This document shows, in pieces, positions 2,685 through 62,153 of a DNA stretch of 64,000 nucleotides. The position numbers and the translations under genes are program-made. The stretch is taken from positions 11,376-75,375 of the forward strand of contig CALLKF010000116.1 in assembly GCA_938008535.1 (NCBI GenBank), read 5' to 3'. Under the pieces are notes generated by a model, which saw only the letters and a list, made by a program, of their open reading frames with translations, had not been told where the DNA came from and made no database searches. Position 1 is the stretch's first letter. Every line of letters begins with the position of its first letter. Source of the stretch: an uncultured Saprospirales bacterium (GTDB lineage Bacteria > Bacteroidota > Bacteroidia > Chitinophagales > JADIYW01).

Positions 2685-3083
2685 ATGAAAAATTTTATCT
2701 CAAATCTAGCATTACATCCTAAAAAAATATTTCTTTTTGATGCTATTGGAGCATTTGTAGCATCTTTATTTTTATGTTTGATTTATTTTATATTTTATAA
2801 AAACTTTGGACTGCCAAAACAAAGTATTTTATACTTAATGATTTTTGCAATTTGTTGTTGTCTATATTCGACATACTGTTACTACTTTATTCATTCAAAT
2901 CAAAATAAATATATCAAAGGCATTATCATTGCAAATATTATTTATCTTATATTTACGATAGTACAAATCGGCTATTTTTATAATTACCTAAACATATCTG
3001 GTTGGATTTATTTTTGTTTAGATATAATGATTATAAGTTTTGTAATTTTTATAGAAATAAAAACATCTAAACACTTAAAGTAG
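2685..3083 (+). CDS. Small polytopic membrane protein, unknown function
   Basis: 132 aa that is very hydrophobic, with about 4 predicted TM segments. It is embedded between the ALDH and RidA genes with short spacers. Confidence 0.55.
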   Translation: MKNFISNLALHPKKIFLFDAIGAFVASLFLCLIYFIFYKNFGLPKQSILYLMIFAICCCLYSTYCYYFIHSNQNKYIKGIIIANIIYLIFTIVQIGYFYNYLNISGWIYFCLDIMIISFVIFIEIKTSKHLK

Positions 3084-3089
3084 AAAATA

Positions 3090-3506
3090 ATGACAGAAAA
3101 TATCAGCCATTCATCAAAAGCACCAGAACCAGTTGGTGCCTATCCACATGCAAGACGCGTTGGAAATTTATTATTTCTTTCTGGTGTTGGACCACGAGAA
3201 AAAGGTACTAAAAAAATTCCTGGTGTTGAATTGGATGAACAAGGAAATATTATTTCTTATGATATTGAAACGCAATGTCATTCTGTTTTTCAAAATATAA
3301 AATATATTTTGGAAGATGCAGGTTCTGACTGGAAAAACATTGTTGACGTAACAGTTTTTTTGACAAACATGAAAGCTGATTTTAAAACATACAATCGCAT
3401 TTATGCTGAATATTTTAAAGATAATCAGCCATGCAGAACAACGATTGAAATTTTAAGCTTACCAACACCGATTGCCATTGAATTAAAAGTGATTGCTGTG
3501 ATTTAA
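3090..3506 (+). CDS. RidA/YjgF-family deaminase (candidate 2-aminomuconate deaminase)
   Basis: 138 aa with RidA-like sequence (APEPVGAYPHARRVGNLLFLSGVGP ... TTIEILSLPTPIAIELKVIAV). The role is inferred from the neighbouring genes. Confidence 0.75.
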   Translation: MTENISHSSKAPEPVGAYPHARRVGNLLFLSGVGPREKGTKKIPGVELDEQGNIISYDIETQCHSVFQNIKYILEDAGSDWKNIVDVTVFLTNMKADFKTYNRIYAEYFKDNQPCRTTIEILSLPTPIAIELKVIAVI

Positions 3507-4114: not shown

Positions 4115-5127
4115 GCATTTTAAAGATTGACATACACACACATATTCTACCTGAGAATATTCCAAATTGGAAAGAAAAATTTGGCTATGGTGGTTTTATT
4201 CAATTAGATCATTACAAACCTTGCTGCGCAAAAATGCTGCGTGATGACGGAAAGTTTTTTCGTGATATTGAAGAAAATTGCTGGTCGCCAGAAACTCGTA
4301 TACATGAATGTAATCAACATCAAGTGAATGTACAGGTGTTGTCCACTATACCAATTATGTTTAGTTATTGGACAAAACCAGATGACTGTTTATCTGTTTC
4401 ACAATTTTTAAATGACCATATTGCAAACATTGTTCAGCAATATCCAACAAAATTTATTGGTTTAGGAACTGTTCCAATGCAAGCACCTGATTTAGCTATT
4501 AAAGAATTAGAACGTAGTAAAAAAATTGGATTAGTTGGTGTACAAATTGGCTCCAATGTCAATCAAGAAAATTTAGGTGATGCAAAATTTGCGGATTTTT
4601 TTGTTGCATGCGAAGAACTGGAAATGGCAGTTTTTGTGCATCCTTGGGAAATGCTCGGTGAGCAACACATGCAGAAATATTGGCTTCCATGGTTAGTTGG
4701 AATGCCTGCGGAAATCTCACGCGCTATTAGTTCATTAATATTTTCAGGAACATTAGAACGCTTGCCAAAATTACGGATTGCATTTGCACATGGTGGTGGC
4801 TCGTTTCCATCAACCATCGGAAGAATTGATCATGGCTTTCACGCACGACCAGATTTATGTGCTATAGACAACAACGTTTCACCTAAAAATTACTTGAATA
4901 AAATCTATTATGATTCATTAGTGCACGAACCAATGATGCTGGATTATTTAGTAAAATTAGTCGGTGCCGACAGAGTCGCATTAGGTACAGATTATCCATT
5001 TCCATTAGGTGAATTAGAGCCAGGAAAATTAATTGAATCGATGAATTATGACGATACTATAAAAACAAGATTACTCTCAGGCACCGCTTTAGAATGGTTA
5101 AATTTGGATAAAAGCAAATTTTTATAA
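4111..5127 (+). CDS. Amidohydrolase-2 family, 2-amino-3-carboxymuconate-6-semialdehyde decarboxylase (ACMSD)
   Basis: The N-terminus MSILKIDIHTHILP carries the metal-binding HxH, and AFAHGGG and GTDYPFP motifs are present. The start was moved to the ATG at 4111, which gives an ATGA overlap with the HAAO stop. Confidence 0.85.
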   Translation: MSILKIDIHTHILPENIPNWKEKFGYGGFIQLDHYKPCCAKMLRDDGKFFRDIEENCWSPETRIHECNQHQVNVQVLSTIPIMFSYWTKPDDCLSVSQFLNDHIANIVQQYPTKFIGLGTVPMQAPDLAIKELERSKKIGLVGVQIGSNVNQENLGDAKFADFFVACEELEMAVFVHPWEMLGEQHMQKYWLPWLVGMPAEISRAISSLIFSGTLERLPKLRIAFAHGGGSFPSTIGRIDHGFHARPDLCAIDNNVSPKNYLNKIYYDSLVHEPMMLDYLVKLVGADRVALGTDYPFPLGELEPGKLIESMNYDDTIKTRLLSGTALEWLNLDKSKFL

Positions 5128-5147: not shown

Positions 5148-6428
5148 ATGAATTCAGAAAAAATAATTTATCAAAACAATGAAGCATTTGCACAGCAATT
5201 AGATAACGCTGATGCATTAGCAAAATATCGAAATCAGTTTCATTTTCCAAAAGATAATACTGGAAATACATTACTTTATTTTTGTGGAAATTCTCTTGGC
5301 TTGCAACCTAAAAATGTTCGTGCTTATATTGAGCAGGAATTGTTAGATTGGGAAAACTTAGGCGTTGAAGGACATTTTCATGCAAAGCATCCGTGGATGC
5401 CATATCATGAATTTTTGACTGAAAAAATGGCAAACATCGTTGGTGCAAAACCTATTGAAGTAGTCGTGATGAATACATTGACAGTGAACTTGCATTTAAT
5501 GATGGTTTCTTTTTATCGACCAACAAAAACCAAATATAAAATCGTTATTGAAAAAAATGCGTTTCCGTCAGACCAATATGCAGTGCAATCGCAAATAAAT
5601 TTTCATGGATTTGATTGTAAAGATGCTTTATTTGAATTAACACCACGCGAAAATGAAGATATTATTTTTACAGAAGATATTGAAAAAGTAATTGCAGAAC
5701 AAGGCGATTCTATTGCATTAATTATGTTAGGTGGTGTGAACTATTACACTGGACAAGCATTCGATATGGAACGCATTACAGAAGTTGCACATCAAAAAAA
5801 CATAGTTGTTGGTTTTGACCTGGCACATGCTGCTGGAAATTTATTATTACAATTACATGACTGGAATGTGGACTTCGCAGTGTGGTGCAGTTATAAATAT
5901 TTAAACAGTGGTCCAGGTGGAATTGCTGGTTGTTTTGTGCATGAAAAACATGCAACAGATAAATCAATACCGCGCTTTGCAGGTTGGTGGTCGAATGATA
6001 AACAAAAACGATTTTTAATGCAACCAGAATTTAATGCAATCGATGGCGCAGAAGGTTGGCAGCTCAGCAATCCTTCTATTTTAGCAATGGCAAGCTTGCG
6101 CGCTTCGCTTGATATATTTGATGAAGTTGGAATGAAAAAATTATCTGAGAAAAGCAATCAACTAACTACTTATTTAGAATTTTTAATTAATGAACTAAAA
6201 AATGATGATATAGAAATTATCACACCAAAAGATACTAAGCAACGTGGTGCACAACTATCTATCAGAATAAAAAATAGCAACAAAAATTTCTTTCATCAAC
6301 TAACAGCAACTGGTGTTGTTTGCGATTGGCGCGAACCTGATGTAATTCGTTTAGCGCCAGTTCCTTTATACAATTCATTTTTAGATGTGTATCAGTTTGT
6401 TCAAAAATTAAAATTGGTGTTATCATGA
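5148..6428 (+). CDS. kynU: Kynureninase
   Basis: 426 aa PLP enzyme with the SYKYLNSGPGG lysine motif and FAGWW, typical of kynureninase. Confidence 0.9.
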   Translation: MNSEKIIYQNNEAFAQQLDNADALAKYRNQFHFPKDNTGNTLLYFCGNSLGLQPKNVRAYIEQELLDWENLGVEGHFHAKHPWMPYHEFLTEKMANIVGAKPIEVVVMNTLTVNLHLMMVSFYRPTKTKYKIVIEKNAFPSDQYAVQSQINFHGFDCKDALFELTPRENEDIIFTEDIEKVIAEQGDSIALIMLGGVNYYTGQAFDMERITEVAHQKNIVVGFDLAHAAGNLLLQLHDWNVDFAVWCSYKYLNSGPGGIAGCFVHEKHATDKSIPRFAGWWSNDKQKRFLMQPEFNAIDGAEGWQLSNPSILAMASLRASLDIFDEVGMKKLSEKSNQLTTYLEFLINELKNDDIEIITPKDTKQRGAQLSIRIKNSNKNFFHQLTATGVVCDWREPDVIRLAPVPLYNSFLDVYQFVQKLKLVLS

Positions 6429-12981: not shown

Positions 12982-13542
12982 ATGCTTGAATTTAATTTTG
13001 ATTTATTTCCAGAACTTATTACCGAACGATTGGTTTTGCGACCACTTACTTTAGATGATGCTCCATCTTTATTTGAATTAAACACCAATGATGATGCATT
13101 AAAATATTTAGGTTTTTTACGGATGCATTCTGTTAATGATGCTATCAAAAAAATAGAAAAAATCACAGAAGATATAGCTACAACAGATTGCATGTATTGG
13201 GCAATTTCTACTAAAGAAAATTTAGAATTAATTGGCACTATTTGTTTATTTCATTTTAAAAAGCAACATCATCGTGGTGAAGTTGGTTATATGTTGCATC
13301 CAAATTTCTGGCGAAAAGGAATTTTGCAAGAATGCATGCATGCTGTTTTAGATTATGGTTTTAATGTGTTGAACTTTCATTCTTTAGAAGCTATTGTTGA
13401 CCCAGAAAATGCGGCAAGTATTGGCTTACTCGAGAAAAATAAATTTGTACGTGAAGCATATTTCAAAGAAGATTTTTACCAAGATGGAAAATTTAATGAT
13501 ACTGCAATTTATTCTTTATTAAAATCTAATTGGAAGAAATAA
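12982..13542 (+). CDS. GNAT-family N-acetyltransferase (RimJ/RimL-like)
   Basis: 186 aa; TERLVLRPLTLDDAPSLFEL at the N-terminus and the acetyl-CoA motif region HPNFWRKGILQE. Confidence 0.8.
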   Translation: MLEFNFDLFPELITERLVLRPLTLDDAPSLFELNTNDDALKYLGFLRMHSVNDAIKKIEKITEDIATTDCMYWAISTKENLELIGTICLFHFKKQHHRGEVGYMLHPNFWRKGILQECMHAVLDYGFNVLNFHSLEAIVDPENAASIGLLEKNKFVREAYFKEDFYQDGKFNDTAIYSLLKSNWKK

Positions 13543-13607
13543 AGTGAAGGTGAAAGTGTAGTGGCGCATTACATGGGTCATGTTCATTCAAGTTTCAACA
13601 AATTAAT

Positions 13608-13712
13608 ATCACTAAGTCGCACTGAGAAAGAATAGAGAAAAAGAATGTGTGTAATATGGTATAATTTTGCTGATTTATATAACTCAGTGAAAACTCCTTG
13701 TAACTCTGTGAT
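13608..13712. repeat. Intergenic imperfect palindrome (cactaag/cactgag words)
   Basis: Left arm atcactaagtcgcactgag versus right arm ctcagtgaaaactccttgtaactctgtgat; the termini atcac/gtgat and cactgag/ctcagtg are complementary. Confidence 0.55.
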
Positions 13713-13730
13713 ATTTTTTTGCATAAAAAA

Positions 13731-13752
13731 AGCCACCGCAAATGCGATGGCT
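13731..13752 (-). terminator. Intrinsic terminator (bidirectional geometry) between convergent genes
   Basis: agccaccgc-aaat-gcgatggct forms a 9-bp stem with 1 mismatch. It is flanked by an A7 run upstream and ttct downstream, so the U-tract is stronger on the minus strand (PDZ gene). Confidence 0.6.
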
Positions 13753-13778
13753 TTCTATATAAATAGTAATGTTTTTTT

Positions 13779-14702
13779 TTATTGCAAGATGATTTTTTTG
13801 TTCGTTTGCTTCTCACCTATTTTTAATTGAATTAAATAAGCACCTTTTGGTTCATTTTCTAAATTAAATTGTTTAGAAAATTCTCCTGTGAAATTTTGTA
13901 TAATTTCTGCTTGAACAATTCTTCCAGAAATATCAAAAACCGTTAGCATTGGTGTACCTTTTTCGTTTGATGCAAAATCAACCGTAATTTTTCCGTTGCT
14001 TGGATTTGGTGCAATAATAAATTTATCCGCAATTAATTCTGTACTGATTGGTTTTTTAATTTCAATTGGTGCAGCAACATCTGGTGTAATTTTATACAAT
14101 GTATATTCTTTAATAGGACAACCACAATCACATTTTTCTCTTTCTTTTTTGATGTTGTTAATGGCTTGCAACTTATCTTCTAAACCAAAATACAATTGTT
14201 TAGCAGTTGGCAAATCCGACAAAGCTGTAACTGTAGTTTTTCCAGTTTCATCTGTTTTAGAAATTGAAATTGGTGTTTTATCTTTTATTAATATGTCTGT
14301 TTTATCATCAGCAAAAATCCAATGTTCGCCATCAGCTTTCACACTTTTTTCTAATTTAAAATTAATTGCTTCTGGTTTTTTACCAAGTGTAACTTTTGTA
14401 GAATATGTTACACCAATTCTCACATAACTTAATGTTATTGCATTACCTAAGTCATAGTTAGCAACTTGTGTAACTAAATCAGATTTTTTCAAAACTGCAA
14501 CACCATTTACGGCAGTAATGATATCATTTTCTTTCAATCCAAATTTCTTCGCAGCGCCATTTTCAAACAATTCTGTAATCTGCGCGCCATTTGTATCATT
14601 GCTTATATAATCGCTTATAGTAACACCTAAAAAACCTGTATTTTTAGCAAATGTAACAGATAAAAAAATAAGTAATAAAGTAGAAAGTAAAAATTTTTTC
14701 AT
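13779..14702 (-). CDS. Secreted PDZ-domain protein with T9SS C-terminal sorting domain (paralog A)
   Basis: Signal peptide, a PDZ-like region (GAAKKFGLKENDIITAVNG), and a C-terminal PNPSNGKITVDF...YLIQLKIGEKQTNKKIILQ typical of a Por-secretion CTD. Confidence 0.75.
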   Translation of the reverse strand: MKKFLLSTLLLIFLSVTFAKNTGFLGVTISDYISNDTNGAQITELFENGAAKKFGLKENDIITAVNGVAVLKKSDLVTQVANYDLGNAITLSYVRIGVTYSTKVTLGKKPEAINFKLEKSVKADGEHWIFADDKTDILIKDKTPISISKTDETGKTTVTALSDLPTAKQLYFGLEDKLQAINNIKKEREKCDCGCPIKEYTLYKITPDVAAPIEIKKPISTELIADKFIIAPNPSNGKITVDFASNEKGTPMLTVFDISGRIVQAEIIQNFTGEFSKQFNLENEPKGAYLIQLKIGEKQTNKKIILQ

Positions 14703-37953: not shown

Positions 37954-38673
37954 TTATGCATTTCCATTCATCCAAGTAAACACTTTGTTTCCATCGGTAT
38001 TTATAGAAAATGAATCTTTAAAAACGGCAGAAAAGTTTTTTTCAAACTGTGCGTTTTCAATGTTGCTTTTGTGCGAATCATCTATTTTTGAGAACAACAA
38101 AATACCTTGTTCGTTTACTAAATTCTTTAAGCTGCTTAGAAATTGTTGCTGCATAAATTGCATTGGTGTTTCGTCTTCAATAAACACATCAAACAACACC
38201 AAATCGTATTTTTTATGTTGATGGGTTTGCACAAAATGTTCTGCATCATCGCATACATAATCTACTTTATTTTTTAAGTTCGATTGTAAATACTTTTTAG
38301 CCAAATCAATAATAATTGTATCGGCATCAACAGCAGTTATTTGGTTGATGCTTGTATGATTTTCCAGCAGATCTACCACGCTGCCTAAACCGAAACCTAA
38401 TACCAAAACCGATGCTATTTTTTTGTTTTGAATATCAATTGCTTTAAACGCTACCTGAAACGATGTGTAGTTTTTTCCGAACGAATAGATAGCGTTTTTG
38501 GTAGCCAGTTTATATTGACCACCAGACAAAGAAACCTCCACTTCGCCAGAGAAATTGCTTTGTTTTTTCTCTATAGAAATATCGAACAGGTAGCTTAAAA
38601 TATGTTTAATGGTGGATGGCATCGGCAACGCGAAAATAAGTAAAATTAGCTGAATTAGTTTTGTAGTGTACAT
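37954..38673 (-). CDS. Class I SAM-dependent methyltransferase / spermidine-synthase-like protein
   Basis: N-terminal hydrophobic segment and LVLGFGLGSVV (motif I-like) followed by an acidic D..D pattern; 239 aa. Confidence 0.6.
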   Translation of the reverse strand: MYTTKLIQLILLIFALPMPSTIKHILSYLFDISIEKKQSNFSGEVEVSLSGGQYKLATKNAIYSFGKNYTSFQVAFKAIDIQNKKIASVLVLGFGLGSVVDLLENHTSINQITAVDADTIIIDLAKKYLQSNLKNKVDYVCDDAEHFVQTHQHKKYDLVLFDVFIEDETPMQFMQQQFLSSLKNLVNEQGILLFSKIDDSHKSNIENAQFEKNFSAVFKDSFSINTDGNKVFTWMNGNA

Positions 38674-38742
38674 ACTGAGCTACTATTAAAAAACGAATGC
38701 AATGCACATTGACAGACTTGCATTTTTGCATTTTTGCTTCAT

Positions 38743-38965
38743 CCGCATGATAGGAAGTTGGTTCCGCATGATAGAAAGCTGAAGTGCGATGATAGATAGT
38801 TAATTCCGCATGATAAAAAGTTGTAGCCCGATGATAGATAGTTGACTCCGTTTAATAGAAAGTTGAATCCCGATGATAGAAAGTTAGCTTCGGATAATAG
38901 AAAGTTTAATCGCGGTGATAGAAAGTTTAATCCGCTTGATAGTAATTTTCGTTCGGAAAAATAGT
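38743..38965 (+). repeat. Degenerate head-to-tail tandem array, ~21-bp period, 10-11 units (consensus CCGnnTGATAGAAAGTTnAnT)
   Basis: Units start at 38743, 38764, 38787, 38806, 38827, 38848, 38869, 38891, 38911 and 38932, with a decayed unit at 38954. Each has a (T/A)GATAG(A/G/T)AAGTT-like core. The region is noncoding, with stops in all frames. Confidence 0.85.
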
Positions 38966-39034
38966 AAATGGTTGGTTTACAGTGGGTTTGTAAATTTATC
39001 TGATCAAATTGCGTAAGAAATTGGAATAATTTCT

Positions 39035-40600
39035 TTAAATAAGATTCAACTTTACTTTAAGTTGATCTTTTACAATATCAAATTCTTTAGGTATGTTTTC
39101 AACTGCCACATCAGTAGCCCATTTATATGCATCTTCAATTTTATTATCATCTCTAAAATGCTGATTAGGAAAATATGTCTTAATAAATTTTTCTAATGTT
39201 GGTACAATTTCCAATCCTACTTTATTATCTATAGAGTTTTTTAGTTGACCGTGAGCATCTGGGTCTGAGCCACTATCTTTATCCCAAATTGCAAAATAGT
39301 CATCAATTCCCATCAATCTCATTACACCTATAAAATACATTACGCCTCCTTTACCACCGCATTCAATAATTGAGATACCATTTTTATTTAAGGAAATTTT
39401 CCATTTATCTTCTATTAATGTTGTCCACAGGATTTTATCTGAATCTCCTTCAACTAGAATGACATATCTAGCAAAAAATATTTCATTTCGGTATGTATTA
39501 AAGTGAGCATATATCTTAAATTCTTTTGATTTAAAATAATCTTCGTTTACAAAAGTCTTATTCTTTTTTCTCAAGTAAGTTCCATTATCTTTATCTTTTG
39601 TTATAAGTTCAATCTCATATGCTCTTTGCGGATTAAGAAAATTAGGATTATGTGTTGTATAAAATATTTGTGTATTATCTGAAAGTTTTTGAAAATTGTC
39701 ATACAGTTCTCTTTGAGCTTGTGGATATAAGAAAAGCTCAGGTTCTTCAATTGCAAAAATTGCCTTTCCTTGATTTAATTCAGCATATGATTGAAAAATC
39801 GATAAAAGAATAAGATTCTGCATTCCTGAACCTACTTCTTCAGCATCAAATATTTTTTCATTTAAATCTTCTGAAACTGTAATTTGCAATGTTTTATAAA
39901 ACCAATTTAAATTATAAATATCAAGTTGAGGCTTAAAATTATTTGCGATACCTGCACTATTTTGTTTACAATATCCTACAAAAACATCATAGAATTTTTT
40001 GAAAGAAACGGCAGTTGTATTACCTGAGAAATCATATTCTAAAAATTCTTTTGCTGGTTTCATAATTTCAGTAAACTCGTGCTGTAAATTTTCTTCTCCA
40101 CTATAAAAATCAATATAATTATCCTGTACTAACCTCATCATTTTTCCTAATAAAGTCCAATTACTAACTCTCATCTCATCTTTTAAATCTCTTAAAGAAG
40201 GTATATAAACGAAGTGGCAGGATTTTTTAAATTCTTCATTTAAAAATCCTGGTTTTTCATTACCACTTGGAAAATTCTCCCAAAGACGCATTTCACAATT
40301 AAGTGGATTTAATTCCATTTTTAGTGATACAAATTTTATAGCTCTTTGACCATTATATGATTTCCAATCTATTGGATCATTTAATTCGACTAAAATCTTT
40401 ATTGGTTTTGATGTGTCATTAAATAATTCTTTAGCAACTTTTGCTTTAGTTGTCCAACCTTCACCTAGTACTAAATCAATTGCTTTTAACACATTTGATT
40501 TACCACTACTATTTGCGCCAACAATTGCACATAATTTTAAAGGTTCTAATTCTAACCGCTTTATAGAACGGAAATTCTCGATTGAAATTTTCTTAATCAT
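39035..40600 (-). CDS. OLD-family ATP-dependent endonuclease (ABC-type ATPase + C-terminal Toprim)
   Basis: N-terminus IENFRSIKRLELE, Walker A GANSSGKSN, signature-like GSGMQN, Walker B FAIEEPELFLYP and H-loop TTHNP. Toprim motifs are ILVEGDSDKILW, ECGGKGG and FAIWDKDSGSD. Confidence 0.85.
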   Translation of the reverse strand: MIKKISIENFRSIKRLELEPLKLCAIVGANSSGKSNVLKAIDLVLGEGWTTKAKVAKELFNDTSKPIKILVELNDPIDWKSYNGQRAIKFVSLKMELNPLNCEMRLWENFPSGNEKPGFLNEEFKKSCHFVYIPSLRDLKDEMRVSNWTLLGKMMRLVQDNYIDFYSGEENLQHEFTEIMKPAKEFLEYDFSGNTTAVSFKKFYDVFVGYCKQNSAGIANNFKPQLDIYNLNWFYKTLQITVSEDLNEKIFDAEEVGSGMQNLILLSIFQSYAELNQGKAIFAIEEPELFLYPQAQRELYDNFQKLSDNTQIFYTTHNPNFLNPQRAYEIELITKDKDNGTYLRKKNKTFVNEDYFKSKEFKIYAHFNTYRNEIFFARYVILVEGDSDKILWTTLIEDKWKISLNKNGISIIECGGKGGVMYFIGVMRLMGIDDYFAIWDKDSGSDPDAHGQLKNSIDNKVGLEIVPTLEKFIKTYFPNQHFRDDNKIEDAYKWATDVAVENIPKEFDIVKDQLKVKLNLI

Positions 40601-40729
40601 TTCAAAAAATATTAAACATTAACACTTTATTTTTACTATCAAATATAGCTTTCTTTAATTAGACTGCGAAATATAGAATTAACAAATTAAACTGCTTGCT
40701 GTATTTGCTGATAATTACACACCTCTTAA

Positions 40730-40747
40730 TCTCCTCTCAAGAGGAGA
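40730..40747. promoter_or_regulatory. Perfect palindrome in the OLD/HTH divergent intergenic region (candidate operator or small hairpin)
   Basis: tctcctc-tcaa-gaggaga forms a 7-bp perfect stem and is the most GC-rich structured element in the 281-bp spacer. Confidence 0.3.
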
Positions 40748-40881
40748 AACCGGACAGTGGTATTCTGGTTGGCAGTAGTGCTTAATAAATTTAGTATGAC
40801 AGTTAGACTATTTTCTTTTAGCAATGACATCTTTTATTGCATGTTTTTTATTAATATTACTTAATAAAAAAACCAATTACT

Positions 40882-41235
40882 ATGATTACATTAGAAATTA
40901 GCCCAGTGCTAAACGAACGTGAAGTGAAAAAACATGGTTCGTTCCTTTTTCAAAATGGCTTCTCGTGGAATTTTGCGAGCCGTCTGTTGACAAAAAAAGT
41001 TAAAAGTATTTCGTTTAAGCATCTTGAAACTTTGTGTACGCTGCTGCATTGCACGCCTAATGACATTTTGTTGTGGAAACCTGACGAAGGACAACAGCCA
41101 GATAAATCGCAGCCGCTGCACCAACTCACTCCACATTACAGAACTCTCGTGTCGCACGGCTTAAAGAATCTGCCTATTGAAACACTGAGAGAGATTCGCA
41201 AAATGATTGAAGAGGAAGTGAAGAAGAATCTGTAA
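40882..41235 (+). CDS. XRE/Cro-type helix-turn-helix protein
   Basis: 117 aa; ISFKHLETLCTLLHCTPNDILLW matches the C-terminal half of the HTH_XRE domain. It is divergent from the OLD gene. Confidence 0.65.
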   Translation: MITLEISPVLNEREVKKHGSFLFQNGFSWNFASRLLTKKVKSISFKHLETLCTLLHCTPNDILLWKPDEGQQPDKSQPLHQLTPHYRTLVSHGLKNLPIETLREIRKMIEEEVKKNL

Positions 41236-41276
41236 GGATTTTTTTTTATTTGTGGTATTGAGTCAAGACTAAAAAA

Positions 41277-41298
41277 TCCATCGTGTAGGCGATGGATT
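41277..41298. terminator. Bidirectional intrinsic terminator between HTH gene and toxin gene
   Basis: atccatcg-tgtagg-cgatggat forms an 8-bp stem, flanked by A6 upstream and T7+ downstream. Confidence 0.75.
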
Positions 41299-41327
41299 TT
41301 TTTTACAGTATAATTTGATTGAAGAAA

Positions 41328-41642
41328 TTACTTTGGTGTTCGTTGTTGTATATGTGTTATCATGTCTTGCTTTTCACCTAATACTGCGATGATGCTAATG
41401 TGTTTTTTGTTTTCGTTTTTGATGTAAAATACATAGTATGGAAAACGTTCTATTTCTACTATTCTTACTTCTTTTATAAATTGTCTGTGTTCTACAATTG
41501 TTACTGGTAAATCGTCTATTACTTTAAATGCTTCTTGCAAAAATTCGGTTCCTAATCTTTCTTGTTTTTCTTCGTACCAATCATAGATTTTTCTTAACTC
41601 TAATTTCGCTTTGGTACGAATAATTACTTTATAGTTGCTCAT
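41328..41642 (-). CDS. RelE/ParE-family type II toxin
   Basis: 104 aa with a ParE-like pattern (AKLELRKIYDWY...ERFPYYVFYI...ISIIAVLG). It has a 4-nt overlap with the upstream small gene. Confidence 0.7.
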   Translation of the reverse strand: MSNYKVIIRTKAKLELRKIYDWYEEKQERLGTEFLQEAFKVIDDLPVTIVEHRQFIKEVRIVEIERFPYYVFYIKNENKKHISIIAVLGEKQDMITHIQQRTPK

Positions 41643-41863
41643 AGTTTGCCTTCCAATCTTAGTTCCTTTTTAAATGCTTCTGATGAAATGCCTTCTTCTG
41701 AATCTTGTCCATATTCTTCTAATCTTTCTTCTATTATACTATAATGTAATGCGCTAAATTTCTGGTCTGCTTCTAATAATTTCTTTACTGCTTTTATTAT
41801 CCATTCTTCTTCGCAGTTTTTAATTCCTTCAATTATTAGTTGCTTTTCTGCTGATATTTGCAT
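41639..41863 (-). CDS. Putative antitoxin (addiction-module component)
   Basis: 74-aa acidic protein, translationally coupled (ATGA) to the ParE-like gene. Confidence 0.55.
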   Translation of the reverse strand: MQISAEKQLIIEGIKNCEEEWIIKAVKKLLEADQKFSALHYSIIEERLEEYGQDSEEGISSEAFKKELRLEGKL

Positions 41864-59423: not shown

Positions 59424-62153
59424 CTATTTTTTAGTTAAGGTTAATATCAGAACTAACAATGTGACCACTGAAGTTGTTGTTGCAATAGTTGCATTCAGTG
59501 CTTTATAAAAAGTTGCTGGATTTCCTTTTTTGGTTTCTTTTTTAGTTTTTGTTGGTTTTTTAGGAATTACAATTGTAGAACCTTTTTCCACTTTTGGGAA
59601 ATTTTTTCCAAATAAAGAACGATGTGTACCTAAAATTTGTCCATTTGGACGAATTACATATGTTTTTCTTCTAAATGCACTATCGCTAAATCCAGCACCA
59701 TATTTGTCTATATAAAACTTAGCGTCTTTGCCTTCGTTATATGGTACGTATAGATTTTCTGGTTTTTTATCTGCAGGATAATTAAATTCACCTCTAATTG
59801 AAACTAAATCTTTAATTGCAGGAATTTTTATAATATCACCTTTACGCAAAACGTAATTATATTTAGAAGTTTTATTTTTCAGTGCTTTATCTAGATCTAA
59901 TAATACATCTCCAATTCCATCTTCTGTTCTATTTAATCTCGCACCATCTGCATAAGCAAATCTTGTCAATCCACCAGATCTTTCAATTAGTGATGATAAT
60001 TTCTCGTCTTTTGTAGTTAACACATAATCACCTGGATATAATACTTCACCTTCTATTTTTACTTTCATTTGATATTCAAATTCTGGAGTTGGACGTACAT
60101 AAATTTGGTCAAAAGGTTGAAGCTTAATAGCGTTGGCAGTAGCATCTCTGCCGATATTTTTACTTACGCTATAACTTAAGATAGTAACCTGAGTTGGCAC
60201 AGATTGAGAAATTGCTTTGTCGTAGTTTGCAATACGAGCAATTTCAATTCTATTAGAAGCTGCTTCCATCTTAAAACCTTGTGCTAAAATTAAAGCGTCT
60301 GCCAATGTCATATTTTCCATGTAAGGAAAAGTATCTACTTTTCTTACTAATCCATTTACTTCAATATAGTATTTATCAATTCGTCTCAAATCTTTTAAGA
60401 CGATAATTTTATCTCTTTTTTTCAATTTAAAAGTATCTAAATTGGCGTAGTTGTCTGTTGTATCAATTCTGAATGAAATTAATTTTTCAGTTAGATCGTC
60501 ATTAATTCTATACACAATAATTTTATCTAACAACGCTTCTTCTTTCAATCCATTACACATAATAATTGCATCTCTAAGCGTCAATCCTTTTTCAGATTCA
60601 AATTTTCTTGGTTTTCTAACTTCACCTTTTACTTCTATATCGAACTTATCAAAAAAGTCAGTTTTAGCATAAACTTCTACTACATCTCTAAATGTTAATA
60701 ACATATTGTCTTCGCAGTTTTTATCTGCAATAATATTATTCAAATTAATTTTATAGGTATGTTTTCTGAAGTCATCAAAATTGGTTCTTGTTAAATAAGC
60801 TTCATCTAAATAAGCATCTTCTTTTAATCCTTGTGCTTTACTAATTAAATCCCAAACTCTGTCTCCTTCTTGCCATTGATATTTACCAGGCAACAAAACA
60901 GATCCGAATATTTCGTTATAATTTTTAATCTTATCAGGAATACTTCTAACGCCAACAACATCGCCATTTTTTAAATAAATTTTACTTCCAATTCTTTTAA
61001 TACTATCAATATCGTAATCAATTAAAATCTGCTTATTTTGATCGTATCTTCTAATTTGGATAACTTTAGTAAATGCATCAGGTTTGTAATTACCACAGTA
61101 CCTCAATAAATCATCAAAAGTTTCACCTTCTATCATTTCATATTTACCTTCTCTGTTTACTGCACCTTCTACTTTTACAATATTTTTTTGTGCCGGAACG
61201 TATATATAATCATTGTTATCTAAGAAAATATCATCTTGTTTTTCAGGTGTAAACAAGAATTTATACAAGTCAAATTTTCTGATAATTTTCCCGTCTCTTT
61301 TTATTTGAATATCTCTAATAGAACCAGATTTTGAAGGACCACCAACGTATGCTAAAATATTATAAGCTGTATTGATTGCTGGAAATGTATAAGAACCAGG
61401 ATTTTCTACGTCACCAACTACATTTATAGTAATTACACGTGAATAATTTATAGAAACATCAAACTGCGATTTATCAATCATGTAAGCACTTGCAAAGCGA
61501 GTACGTAATAACTCTTTTGCTTGCTCCAAAGTGAGACCTTTTAAATAAATACGGCCAATATTTTCTTGTTGAATGTAACCTTCTTTATCTATATAGAATA
61601 ATCGATTATAATCGGCATAACCCCAAATTGAAACGACAATTTGGTCACCAACACCTAAAACGTAATTCAATGGTGGTTTTATATCAACAGCATTATTAAA
61701 GATTTTTACGTCTTTTTGTCTGAAATAAGTAAAACCATAAATATCGACTGAATCTAATTTTTCCCTTAATTCTTTGGTAGCTGTTGCGGTTAGTTTTTCT
61801 ACTGTTTCTGCAGCTTTTTGTGCTTCTTTTAATAATTTATCAGGTGCATTTTGTCCAGATTTCACTTCTGTGCCTGCTTTTTCTGCATTTCCAATTGCAC
61901 CTTGTTGTTCATCTGCATCTTTTGAACGTGGTGTAAACTCTTTTGCGTTTTGATTAGCTTTTTGAACTTCGCCAACTTTAAGTTCACCTTGCTTAATATT
62001 GAGTGTATCTTCAATTTTTTTGATAATCTCATTTATCGAAGGTTCATCATCTAGTGGTATTGGTGTATATGGACTCAATATTTGTGCTTTCGTTGTAAAA
62101 ATAGAAGCAGCCATTATGAGTACAATAGAAAGAAGTTTAATCGTGTTTTTCAT
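59424..62153 (-). CDS. Wza-like polysaccharide export protein with multiple SLBB-type repeats
   Basis: Signal peptide, a Poly_export-like region (GVGDQIVVSIWGYAD), then repeated beta-grasp-like modules (GEV..PG.Y), and a C-terminal TM segment; 909 aa. Confidence 0.75.
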   Translation of the reverse strand: MKNTIKLLSIVLIMAASIFTTKAQILSPYTPIPLDDEPSINEIIKKIEDTLNIKQGELKVGEVQKANQNAKEFTPRSKDADEQQGAIGNAEKAGTEVKSGQNAPDKLLKEAQKAAETVEKLTATATKELREKLDSVDIYGFTYFRQKDVKIFNNAVDIKPPLNYVLGVGDQIVVSIWGYADYNRLFYIDKEGYIQQENIGRIYLKGLTLEQAKELLRTRFASAYMIDKSQFDVSINYSRVITINVVGDVENPGSYTFPAINTAYNILAYVGGPSKSGSIRDIQIKRDGKIIRKFDLYKFLFTPEKQDDIFLDNNDYIYVPAQKNIVKVEGAVNREGKYEMIEGETFDDLLRYCGNYKPDAFTKVIQIRRYDQNKQILIDYDIDSIKRIGSKIYLKNGDVVGVRSIPDKIKNYNEIFGSVLLPGKYQWQEGDRVWDLISKAQGLKEDAYLDEAYLTRTNFDDFRKHTYKINLNNIIADKNCEDNMLLTFRDVVEVYAKTDFFDKFDIEVKGEVRKPRKFESEKGLTLRDAIIMCNGLKEEALLDKIIVYRINDDLTEKLISFRIDTTDNYANLDTFKLKKRDKIIVLKDLRRIDKYYIEVNGLVRKVDTFPYMENMTLADALILAQGFKMEAASNRIEIARIANYDKAISQSVPTQVTILSYSVSKNIGRDATANAIKLQPFDQIYVRPTPEFEYQMKVKIEGEVLYPGDYVLTTKDEKLSSLIERSGGLTRFAYADGARLNRTEDGIGDVLLDLDKALKNKTSKYNYVLRKGDIIKIPAIKDLVSIRGEFNYPADKKPENLYVPYNEGKDAKFYIDKYGAGFSDSAFRRKTYVIRPNGQILGTHRSLFGKNFPKVEKGSTIVIPKKPTKTKKETKKGNPATFYKALNATIATTTSVVTLLVLILTLTKK

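Follow-up and report, generated by a model that had tools for sequence, protein, structure and literature searches.

A phased array of 21-bp direct repeats as a candidate operator of an HTH_26-type protein family in Bacteroidota

The locus and its tandem array

The window, i.e. the whole stretch of 64,000 nucleotides that was analysed, consists of Bacteroidota-like DNA with a GC content of about 31%. Read along the minus strand, the locus shows the order OLD nuclease, repeat array, a leader of about 100 bp and a spermidine-synthase-like methyltransferase (Table 1), so the original prediction placed the array correctly, past the OLD stop codon and before the methyltransferase gene. The OLD gene, which sits between the array and the gene of a small HTH_26-type protein, is read in the direction of the distal array end, with no intrinsic terminator predicted between its stop codon and the array. 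The HTH_26 gene itself lies upstream of OLD, diverges from it and is followed by a ParE/antitoxin pair. The region is embedded between housekeeping flanks, one of which comprises alternative complex III, rsmG, one vWA and one PAP2 gene, the other a gene for a 1643-aa protein together with prmA and tpiA. Concerning the methyltransferase, its start is most likely at 38622, instead of 38673, because its orthologues (218-223 aa) align from M18 of the 239-aa ORF. On a larger scale, the window presents a possible terminus-like switch of GC skew and gene orientation about 25 kb from the array; a search for an E. coli-type dif site gave no match.

Table 1. Features of the locus, with positions in the window.
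Feature	Position	Strand	Remarks
Spermidine-synthase-like methyltransferase	37954..38622	minus	chromosomal gene, now downstream of the array and P'
P', copy of the HTH-family promoter/leader box	38678..38703	minus	ATTGCATTCGTTTTTTAATAGTAGCT; between array and methyltransferase gene
Leader palindrome	38700-38711		CAATGCACATTG; between array and P'
Leader repeat	38718-38737		GCAAAAAT x2.5; between array and P'
Tandem array, ten head-to-tail 21-bp units	38743..38952	minus	minus-strand reading (C/A)AACTTTCTATCATGCGGAnn
Decayed 11th (distal) unit	38953..38973	minus	in-register layout; faces the OLD stop codon
OLD nuclease, class 1-like (AAA_15 + OLD TOPRIM)	39035..40600	minus	best PADLOC model Old
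P, promoter/leader box of the HTH gene	40836..40861	plus	ATTGCATGTTTTTTATTAATATTACT; no adjoining array in this genome
HTH_26 (Xre/CylR2-like) protein, 117 aa	40882..41235	plus	Pfam PF13443, E = 3.8e-10; putative array binder

The whole array, ten units and one decayed unit, keeps an exact 21-bp register with zero indels over positions 38743-38973. TRF reports a 21-bp period of 9.6 copies (score 149) at 38742-38942, together with a 42-bp superperiod whose score, 196, is above that of the 21-bp period. The core TGATAGAAAGTT is found, with at most two mismatches, at 38748 + 21n for every n from 0 to 9, and the autocorrelation at lags 21, 42 and 63 reaches z = 21.7 relative to shuffles. These data confirm the phased head-to-tail array of 10-11 units with a period of about 21 bp that had been predicted and correct the unit size, which is exactly 21 bp throughout, not 19-23 bp. 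With a period of 15 bp or more and four or more copies, no other array occurs in the window. Core-like matches outside it stay at chance level in the 64 kb, hence the motif is not dispersed there in the manner of REP/BIME-like elements, a check that had been proposed with the prediction. The layout also differs from that of CRISPR, as the units abut head to tail and their 9-bp variable part is not a spacer in the CRISPR sense.

Conservation is distributed unevenly along the unit. Mismatches affect 9 of the 120 cells of the 12-bp core (7.5%; unit positions 6-17) vs 32 of the 90 cells of the remaining, variable 9 bp (36%), an unevenness that is matched by only 0.5% of uniform redistributions (P = 0.005). 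Units two apart share 15.9 of 21 positions and adjacent units 14.0. There is not a single indel among the units despite a divergence of about 20%; the best-conserved ones lie at the low-coordinate, promoter-proximal end and those at the distal end are decaying. By a wedge-model estimate, the predicted intrinsic curvature of the array would fall in the top ~1% of the window.

The array was also considered as coding DNA and rejected as such. Stops had been predicted in all frames; one minus-strand frame turned out to be free of them across the array, but it lacks a start codon and is not conserved in the array of a homologous locus (L087, see below), in which the same frame meets a TGA in nearly every unit.

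Flanking genes and HTH homologues in other genomes

To establish which of its neighbours the array belongs with, the genes around it were followed into other genomes. The exact methyltransferase protein is found on four metagenome contigs, where the 361-bp intergenic region is 100% identical to that of the window; the length of the array is hence constant, the five window-type sequences being identical and, for this reason, uninformative for comparison. At the loci of methyltransferase orthologues the array is absent. At L083 (71% identity) the order tpiA-prmA-giant protein (1566 aa)-methyltransferase is gapless, and reads as the ancestral one in this comparison of gene orders. At L081 (89%) a lipoprotein gene lies 124 bp upstream of the methyltransferase, and at L082 (84%) the neighbour is a toxin-antitoxin pair, next to which 66 bp of the methyltransferase 5' end are duplicated. 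The homology between the window and L081 ends at about 38640 and this stop, taken together with the differing orthologue loci, marks the 5' end of the methyltransferase gene as an insertion hotspot. The strain-specific insert of the window measures about 2.6 kb (roughly 38641-41262) and holds the array, OLD and the HTH gene. As the three orthologue loci are devoid of the array, its candidacy as a conserved promoter element of the methyltransferase was rejected.

Similar results were obtained for OLD, the link to which had been the headline of the original prediction. Homologues with 81-87% protein identity occur in differing islands, namely beside an integrase fragment (L076), within an island of order integrase-MmeI-OLD-TIR-HNH (L078) and beside a type I R-M helicase (L084). 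Their nucleotide homology to the window (about 79% identity) covers the OLD ORF only (39062-40600), the flanks being unrelated, and none of the three loci has a related array next to OLD. The association was therefore dropped: judged by these loci, OLD is a neighbour of the array and not its conserved partner, and the array should not be annotated as part of an OLD defence system. A separate observation concerns the L078 island, whose far end, at a distance of 2.6 kb from OLD, carries a 21-bp-period array. This array has no sequence relation to that of the window, its units are absent near the integrase of the island and the locus has no HTH homologue; it may be a coincidence.

The HTH protein belongs to a family for which a profile search retrieves 445 clusters (50% identity) at E ≤ 1e-10, with proteins of about 115-120 aa (nearly all 110-126) that match over nearly their full length. 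The family has no match among NCBIfam names or in IMG/VR, DNA and protein searches of 72,556 plasmids and 50,697 phages gave none either, and a sequence search of the PDB yielded nothing. In an AlphaFold (AF2) model built on 62 sequences the pLDDT averages 88. Foldseek aligns the first ~67 residues of the model with the SaPI2 Stl N-terminal domain, CylR2, VanU and a Bacteroides fragilis Xre-type protein (rmsd ~1.9-2.5 Å, best E = 2e-3); the three C-terminal helices match nothing. Based on the model, the protein combines an Xre/CylR2-like DNA-binding domain, modelled with high confidence, with a likely oligomerisation tail.

Homologues of the HTH protein have arrays of their own. The first homologue, P0226 (66% identity; JAXLTY010000001.1), comes from a Chitinophagales MAG and was reached through protein homology, independently of any DNA pattern. 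At its locus, L087 (of which L088 and L089 are copies), an array of 10-11 units with the consensus CAACTTTCTATGAAGCGGCTG occupies positions 5715-5945 in exact 21-bp register and without indels, ending about 55 nt before the ATG of the HTH gene. The repeat amounts to 21 bp x 10.5 with, again, a 42-bp superperiod, and the best-conserved units are those nearest the promoter, as in the window. The minus-strand unit of the window, CAACTTTCTATCATGCGGAAT, shares with the L087 unit the core AACTTTCTAT..GCGG. When a PWM was derived from the L087 units alone and run over both strands of the window (~128,000 positions), the five best matches were array units, in register; there was no match at 40601-40881, upstream of the HTH gene of the window. 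A second HTH paralogue is listed for the L087 genome.

The second homologue, P0228 (63% identity), is found at loci L090-L096. The L090 array comprises 12 units in exact 21-bp register (5677-5928), ends about 70 bp before the ATG and is the most periodic stretch of the 12-kb locus (z = 12.5 vs shuffles). SNPs are the sole differences among seven contigs of this type, which agree in length. The core is different from that of the window, with units of the form (T/A)TACATGCAC and a core TTACATGCAC. The predicted recognition helix of the HTH protein co-varies with it: SWNFASR in the window and SWDFASR at L087, both with the core AACTTTCTAT, and TEHTATH at L090, with the core TTACATGCAC. This co-variation over three loci is indirect evidence suggesting that the HTH regulator binds the array sites specifically.

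The association of array and HTH gene is thus counted over three independent loci, and it singles out the protein encoded at 40882..41235, which had been named as a candidate binder from its adjacency and to which the comparative sequence data also point. The test of conservation along with the flanking genes came out divided, since relatives with the same methyltransferase flank do lack the array, which is conserved with the HTH gene instead. On the sequence evidence the array appears to travel with the HTH_26 gene, and not with OLD or the methyltransferase. In all three cases a co-directional gene runs into the array from the distal, decayed side, i.e. OLD in the window, an NgoPII R-M operon at L087 and a DUF2461 gene at L090. 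The flanks of L087 and L090 are ordinary chromosomal genes.

It should be noted that in the window itself 1.9 kb separate the HTH gene from the array, which is in inverted orientation compared with L087 and L090. What adjoins the array is P', which resembles the leader of the window HTH gene (ATTGCATGTTTTTTATTAATATTACT), that of L087 and that of L090 (TCATATTCGTTATAGTAG), a resemblance between short sequences that was judged by eye. P' and P are mutually inverted and flank the array together with OLD, so that a single inversion between them would give the L087-like order OLD, array, promoter, HTH. A rearrangement has probably split the array from the HTH gene, leaving array and P' before the methyltransferase gene, OLD between array and HTH gene, and the HTH gene with P alone. 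This rearrangement is read as fixed because the present orientation is shared by all five available sequences. The link between array and HTH gene in the window is historical, not positional.

Possible functions of the array and likeness to known systems

Taken together, the co-occurrence of array and gene, the common core and period, and the co-variation of protein and DNA suggest that the array probably serves the HTH_26-type family as a cooperative operator or iteron-like binding array, whose sites all face the same side of curved DNA. In the same way, and with comparable moderate confidence, the sequences point to a conserved, two-part Bacteroidota module, with the array as its cis-acting half, composed of about 10-12 direct 21-bp repeats, then a promoter, then a gene for a ~118-aa HTH_26 protein with a C-terminal helical extension.

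In an unlikely alternative, the array would boost or gate the adjacent promoter, either as curved upstream DNA or as a set of sites for another trans-acting factor, the HTH gene being merely regulated. Candidates are a nucleoid-associated protein, an AraC-, LytTR- or OmpR-type regulator or the alpha-CTD of RNA polymerase. A direct-repeat spacing of about 21 bp is typical of several regulator families, AraC, LytTR and OmpR among them, the predicted curvature of the array is in the top ~1% of the window and the array always lies just upstream of a promoter-like box, all of which would suit such a factor. So would arrays of other phyla that have the same core and the 21-bp period with no HTH_26 homologue. 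These were obtained by scanning genome contigs for two cores 9-12 nt apart (65 single matches, none of them in the source genome), a pattern that forced core and spacing. They include Lysinibacillus (L042), with the same 10-mer core, a 21-bp period and 17 units between secG and est, as well as 21-bp arrays with the forced core in Pyrinomonadaceae (L045, L057 and L058) and Methanosarcina (L013). No HTH homologue lies within 8 kb of the Lysinibacillus or Pyrinomonadaceae arrays, nor was one found near that of Methanosarcina; viral contigs yielded no arrays with this pattern. One further match, L035, was set aside as a coding heptad repeat. Allowing for how many unit pairs were compared, the likeness of these arrays outside the pattern lacks significance, and, the shared core having been forced, their resemblance to the window array is not independent evidence. 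They could reflect another, more widespread binder or an artefact of locus selection; as the pattern forced core and spacing, convergence and selection bias look alike in such data. Two further points argue against another factor: a generic structural element needs no conserved 12-bp core, and the core changes together with the recognition helix of the HTH protein, as it should when the DNA is read by the neighbouring protein.

A second alternative, which we regard as very unlikely, takes the array for a remnant, left by integration, of an island end or of a mobile replicon, be it iterons, the centromere of a partition system, arm sites of a recombinase or the sites of an excisionase (RDF). 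The location within a 2.6-kb strain-specific insert at an insertion hotspot is in line with such an origin, and the OLD-bearing island L078 likewise ends in a 21-bp array, of unrelated sequence. Tandem units of 21-22 bp also fit iterons of the R6K and P1 type and centromeres of the pSK41 type. On the other side, no Rep, ParA/ParM/TubZ, integrase or transposase gene adjoins the module at any of the three loci, there are no unit copies at the other end of the insert, the plasmid, phage and IMG/VR searches mentioned above found no match and L087 and L090 sit among ordinary chromosomal genes. Of the corresponding part of the original prediction, the one-face, two-turn geometry suited to cooperative binding stands, and membership in the iteron, centromere or arm-site classes does not, given the lack of Rep, Par and integrase genes.

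Plasmid iterons such as those of the R6K gamma ori (7 x 22 bp) or P1 incA (9 x 19 bp) are many head-to-tail direct repeats about two helical turns apart, with a conserved core, a variable spacer and binders on one face of the DNA, and the 10-11 phased 21-bp repeats of the window are alike in this respect. Unlike them, the window array has no Rep initiator beside it, its neighbours being OLD, HTH_26, ParDE and the methyltransferase, and L087 and L090 have none either; its putative partner is a 117-aa Xre-type HTH protein. It is also chromosomal, with housekeeping flanks, no plasmid match by DNA or protein and no evidence of an origin.

Operator-centromere arrays (pSK41 ParR-parC with 4 x 20 bp, R1 parC, the pSM19035 omega-parS heptads, TubR-tubC) are similar in that an array directly upstream of the gene of a small DNA-coating protein doubles as its autoregulatory operator, and in the cooperative filament on bent DNA that is proposed here. 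They differ by their partition NTPase gene, which is absent at all three loci where the small DNA-binding protein is present, by their residence on plasmids and by their binders, which are RHH or winged HTH proteins and not, as putatively here, an Xre/CylR2-like HTH.

Small HTH proteins that form head-to-tail assemblies on directly repeated sites are known from phages, namely the P2 C repressor, P2 Cox and lambda Xis, and small HTH excisionases do bind tandem direct repeats. These use 2-6 sites, as with the two P2 C half-sites 22 bp apart, with a spacing that for Cox and Xis is mostly ~10.5 bp, and they adjoin integrase or immunity genes. Here there is neither, and no phage match; arm sites of a recombinase or transposon ends are further disfavoured by the lack of a recombinase gene and of unit-like sites near 40600-41262. 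As a last comparison, the RTP-Ter system of B. subtilis shares a DNA-binding protein of ~120 aa that is encoded directly downstream of the sites it binds, through which it is also autoregulated. RTP is a winged-helix protein with two overlapping sites per Ter, vs 10-12 tandem units here, where there is no evidence of fork arrest. The closest functional analogues, by these likenesses, would be the omega-parS and ParR-parC operator-centromeres and P2 C and Cox and, more speculatively, RTP-Ter. As for an Xre-type operator, the array is next to the gene and promoter of the putative regulator at L087 and L090, and in the window it adjoins the promoter copy.

Highly improbable, and already disfavoured, is a functionless minisatellite that arose by neutral replication slippage. 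Tandem arrays with a 21-bp period do occur in many unrelated genomes and the distal units are decaying. Such a sequence would not be expected to keep 10-12 units and an exact 21-bp register in three diverged loci, nor its position relative to the HTH gene across them, nor would core and spacer be under differing constraint, as the non-uniform mismatches indicate. Copy number is moreover constant, with no indels, across the 5 and 7 sampled contigs of the window and L090 types, unlike in a VNTR.

Least credible of all is an array that is transcribed and acts as RNA, whether as an OLD 3' UTR that contains repeats, an RNA resembling type III antitoxins (ToxI-like) or a protein-sponge RNA: the missing terminator after OLD and the upstream genes that read into the array in all three loci would permit it, but OLD homologues occur without an array, Rfam has no family matching the region, neither strand folds into more structure than shuffled sequence (z = -0.2 and +0.85), the 21-nt unit is below the 36-45 nt of type III antitoxin repeats and there is no endoRNase toxin of the ToxN/CptN/TenpN kind. 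A ToxI-like locus would also have a terminator after its repeats, and none was predicted.

Proposed mechanism and implications

Returning to an operator bound by the HTH_26 family, the binding, cooperativity and regulatory outcome that we infer from the comparison can be pictured as follows. The HTH protein would recognise a core of about 10-17 bp in each unit and, the units being two helical turns apart, the bound proteins would lie on one face of intrinsically curved DNA. Neighbouring proteins could then touch head to tail and build a cooperative filament, whose working unit may be a pair of units, as suggested by the 42-bp superperiod. The promoter-proximal unit ends ~55-70 bp before the start codon, beside or over an upstream promoter element, so the occupancy of the array would set the transcription of the gene behind it. 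Ten to twelve sites exceed what simple autoregulation needs and might produce a steep threshold or a titration response. A coated array could also be a roadblock to read-through, which is proposed because the co-directional upstream gene reads into the array and no terminator follows OLD. A point that counts against binding by this family is that Xre-type HTH dimers usually target inverted repeats, not direct ones.

A bolder proposal, to which we give little credence, is that the pair of HTH_26 protein and array is a self-contained chromosomal protein-DNA device, widespread in Bacteroidota, that serves as a polar barrier beyond autoregulation. It might be a transcriptional roadblock or insulator that keeps read-through of newly acquired defence genes away from the genes on its flanks. 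It might also be a replication-fork trap of the RTP/Ter kind, a variant for which the skew switch ~25 kb away and the second paralogue in the L087 genome were considered. In a third variant array and OLD would be invertible between P' and P, toggling which gene is under the control of the array.

Literature searches returned no description of an HTH_26-array module, which would be a so far undescribed variant of the cooperative protein-binding repeat array. The two core and helix combinations, AACTTTCTAT..GCGG with SW(N/D)FASR and TTACATGCAC with TEHTATH, would amount to a natural specificity switch within a directly testable protein-DNA pair. The module also calls for an explanation of the many cooperative sites that a stand-alone regulator would have beside horizontally acquired defence genes. 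If confirmed, it would represent an unusually large and strictly phased operator array, of 10-12 sites and iteron- or centromere-like, outside plasmids, and would provide a function for ~118-aa HTH proteins of the Bacteroidota that form a sizeable family, anonymous to date.

Methyltransferase gene: insertions and start codon

Sequence comparison shows the methyltransferase gene to have an insertion hotspot at its 5' end (38575-38670), where the cargo differs in each of the window and the three orthologous loci L081, L082 and L083. In L082 a 66-bp duplicate (141-264 and 900-960), which comprises the region upstream of the methyltransferase gene together with its first ~15 codons, lies beyond an inserted toxin-antitoxin pair; this insert thereby brings a diverged replacement 5' end for the gene, much as att sites are duplicated. 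The 3' end of the window ParE gene and the accompanying hairpin are also kept in L082 (87% over 140 bp). Concerning the start codon, orthologues are 218-223 aa long and nucleotide homology begins ~20-40 bp 5' of the ATG at 38622; hence, the ORF of 239 aa starting at 38673 is probably over-extended, and the ATG at 38622 is favoured.

Features of the window and of other loci that carry arrays of about 21-bp period
Locus	Position	Feature	Sequence
Window	41328-41863	ParE-type toxin and upstream 74-aa antitoxin-like gene	
Window	41263-41300	Hairpin and T-run after the ParE-type toxin/antitoxin genes	
Window	38472-38485 and 38948-38961	Perfect inverted repeat, 14 nt	TTTTTCCGAACGAA / TTCGTTCGGAAAAA
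Window	40740-40765	GC-rich hairpin, divergent OLD/HTH intergenic region	CTCCTCTCAAGAGGAG
L078	9250-9510	Array, ~21-bp period, about 9-13 units	core TTCAATnAATATTT
L042 (Lysinibacillus sp. 54212)	2509-2872	Array, about 17 non-coding units of 21 bp	core AATAGAAAGTTT / AATAGAAACTTTC
L045 (Pyrinomonadaceae)	~3060-3150	21-bp array	core GATAGAAAGTTCC
L057 (Pyrinomonadaceae)	4284-4479	21-bp array	core GATAGAAAGTTCC
L058 (Pyrinomonadaceae)	1569-1771	21-bp array	core GATAGAAAGTTCC

Inverted repeat, curvature and GC skew

One arm of the 14-nt inverted repeat falls within the coding sequence of the methyltransferase, the other in the window array (ten 21-bp direct repeats and a decayed eleventh), among its distal, decayed units; the pairing is probably due to chance. 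The wedge model, applied to 210-bp stretches, places the strongest predicted curvature of the window at 2600-2830 and 59500-59740, both of which exceed the array in this respect.

Around ~13500-13800 the GC skew changes sign, its cumulative value reaches the window maximum, and the genes, on the + strand up to this point and on the - strand beyond it, converge. A skew maximum there is as expected for a replication terminus, and the change could also reflect a local effect of gene orientation; a search for an E. coli-like dif site found none.

Arrays of about 21-bp period at other loci

The second array, in L078, is unrelated in sequence to that of the window. It marks the end of a defence island (in the order integrase-MmeI-OLD homologue-TIR-HNH), ~80 bp 5' of the flanking chromosomal gene, and no homologue of the HTH_26 protein, the proposed binder of the window array, was found in this locus. 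The L042 array lies between secG and the est-rnr-smpB genes and shows superperiods of 42 and 122 bp; its core matches that of the window array, the locus having been picked with a pattern that forces such a match. Among the Pyrinomonadaceae loci, L057 harbors two arrays back to back in inverted orientation, and the arrays of L045 and L057 adjoin a conserved gene of 155-210 aa.

The OLD gene as a cassette

The OLD nuclease gene (39062-40600) behaves, by its pattern of homology, as a single-gene cassette. Nucleotide homology to its homologues in three other islands (~79%) spans from the start codon to near the stop codon, and no flanks are common to the window and these islands. The P0103 contig (ENA ERZ21844512) carries an OLD homologue that is 84% identical, preceded by a 117-aa gene and followed by an 816-bp gap without genes, and could represent a further case of the array together with the HTH gene.
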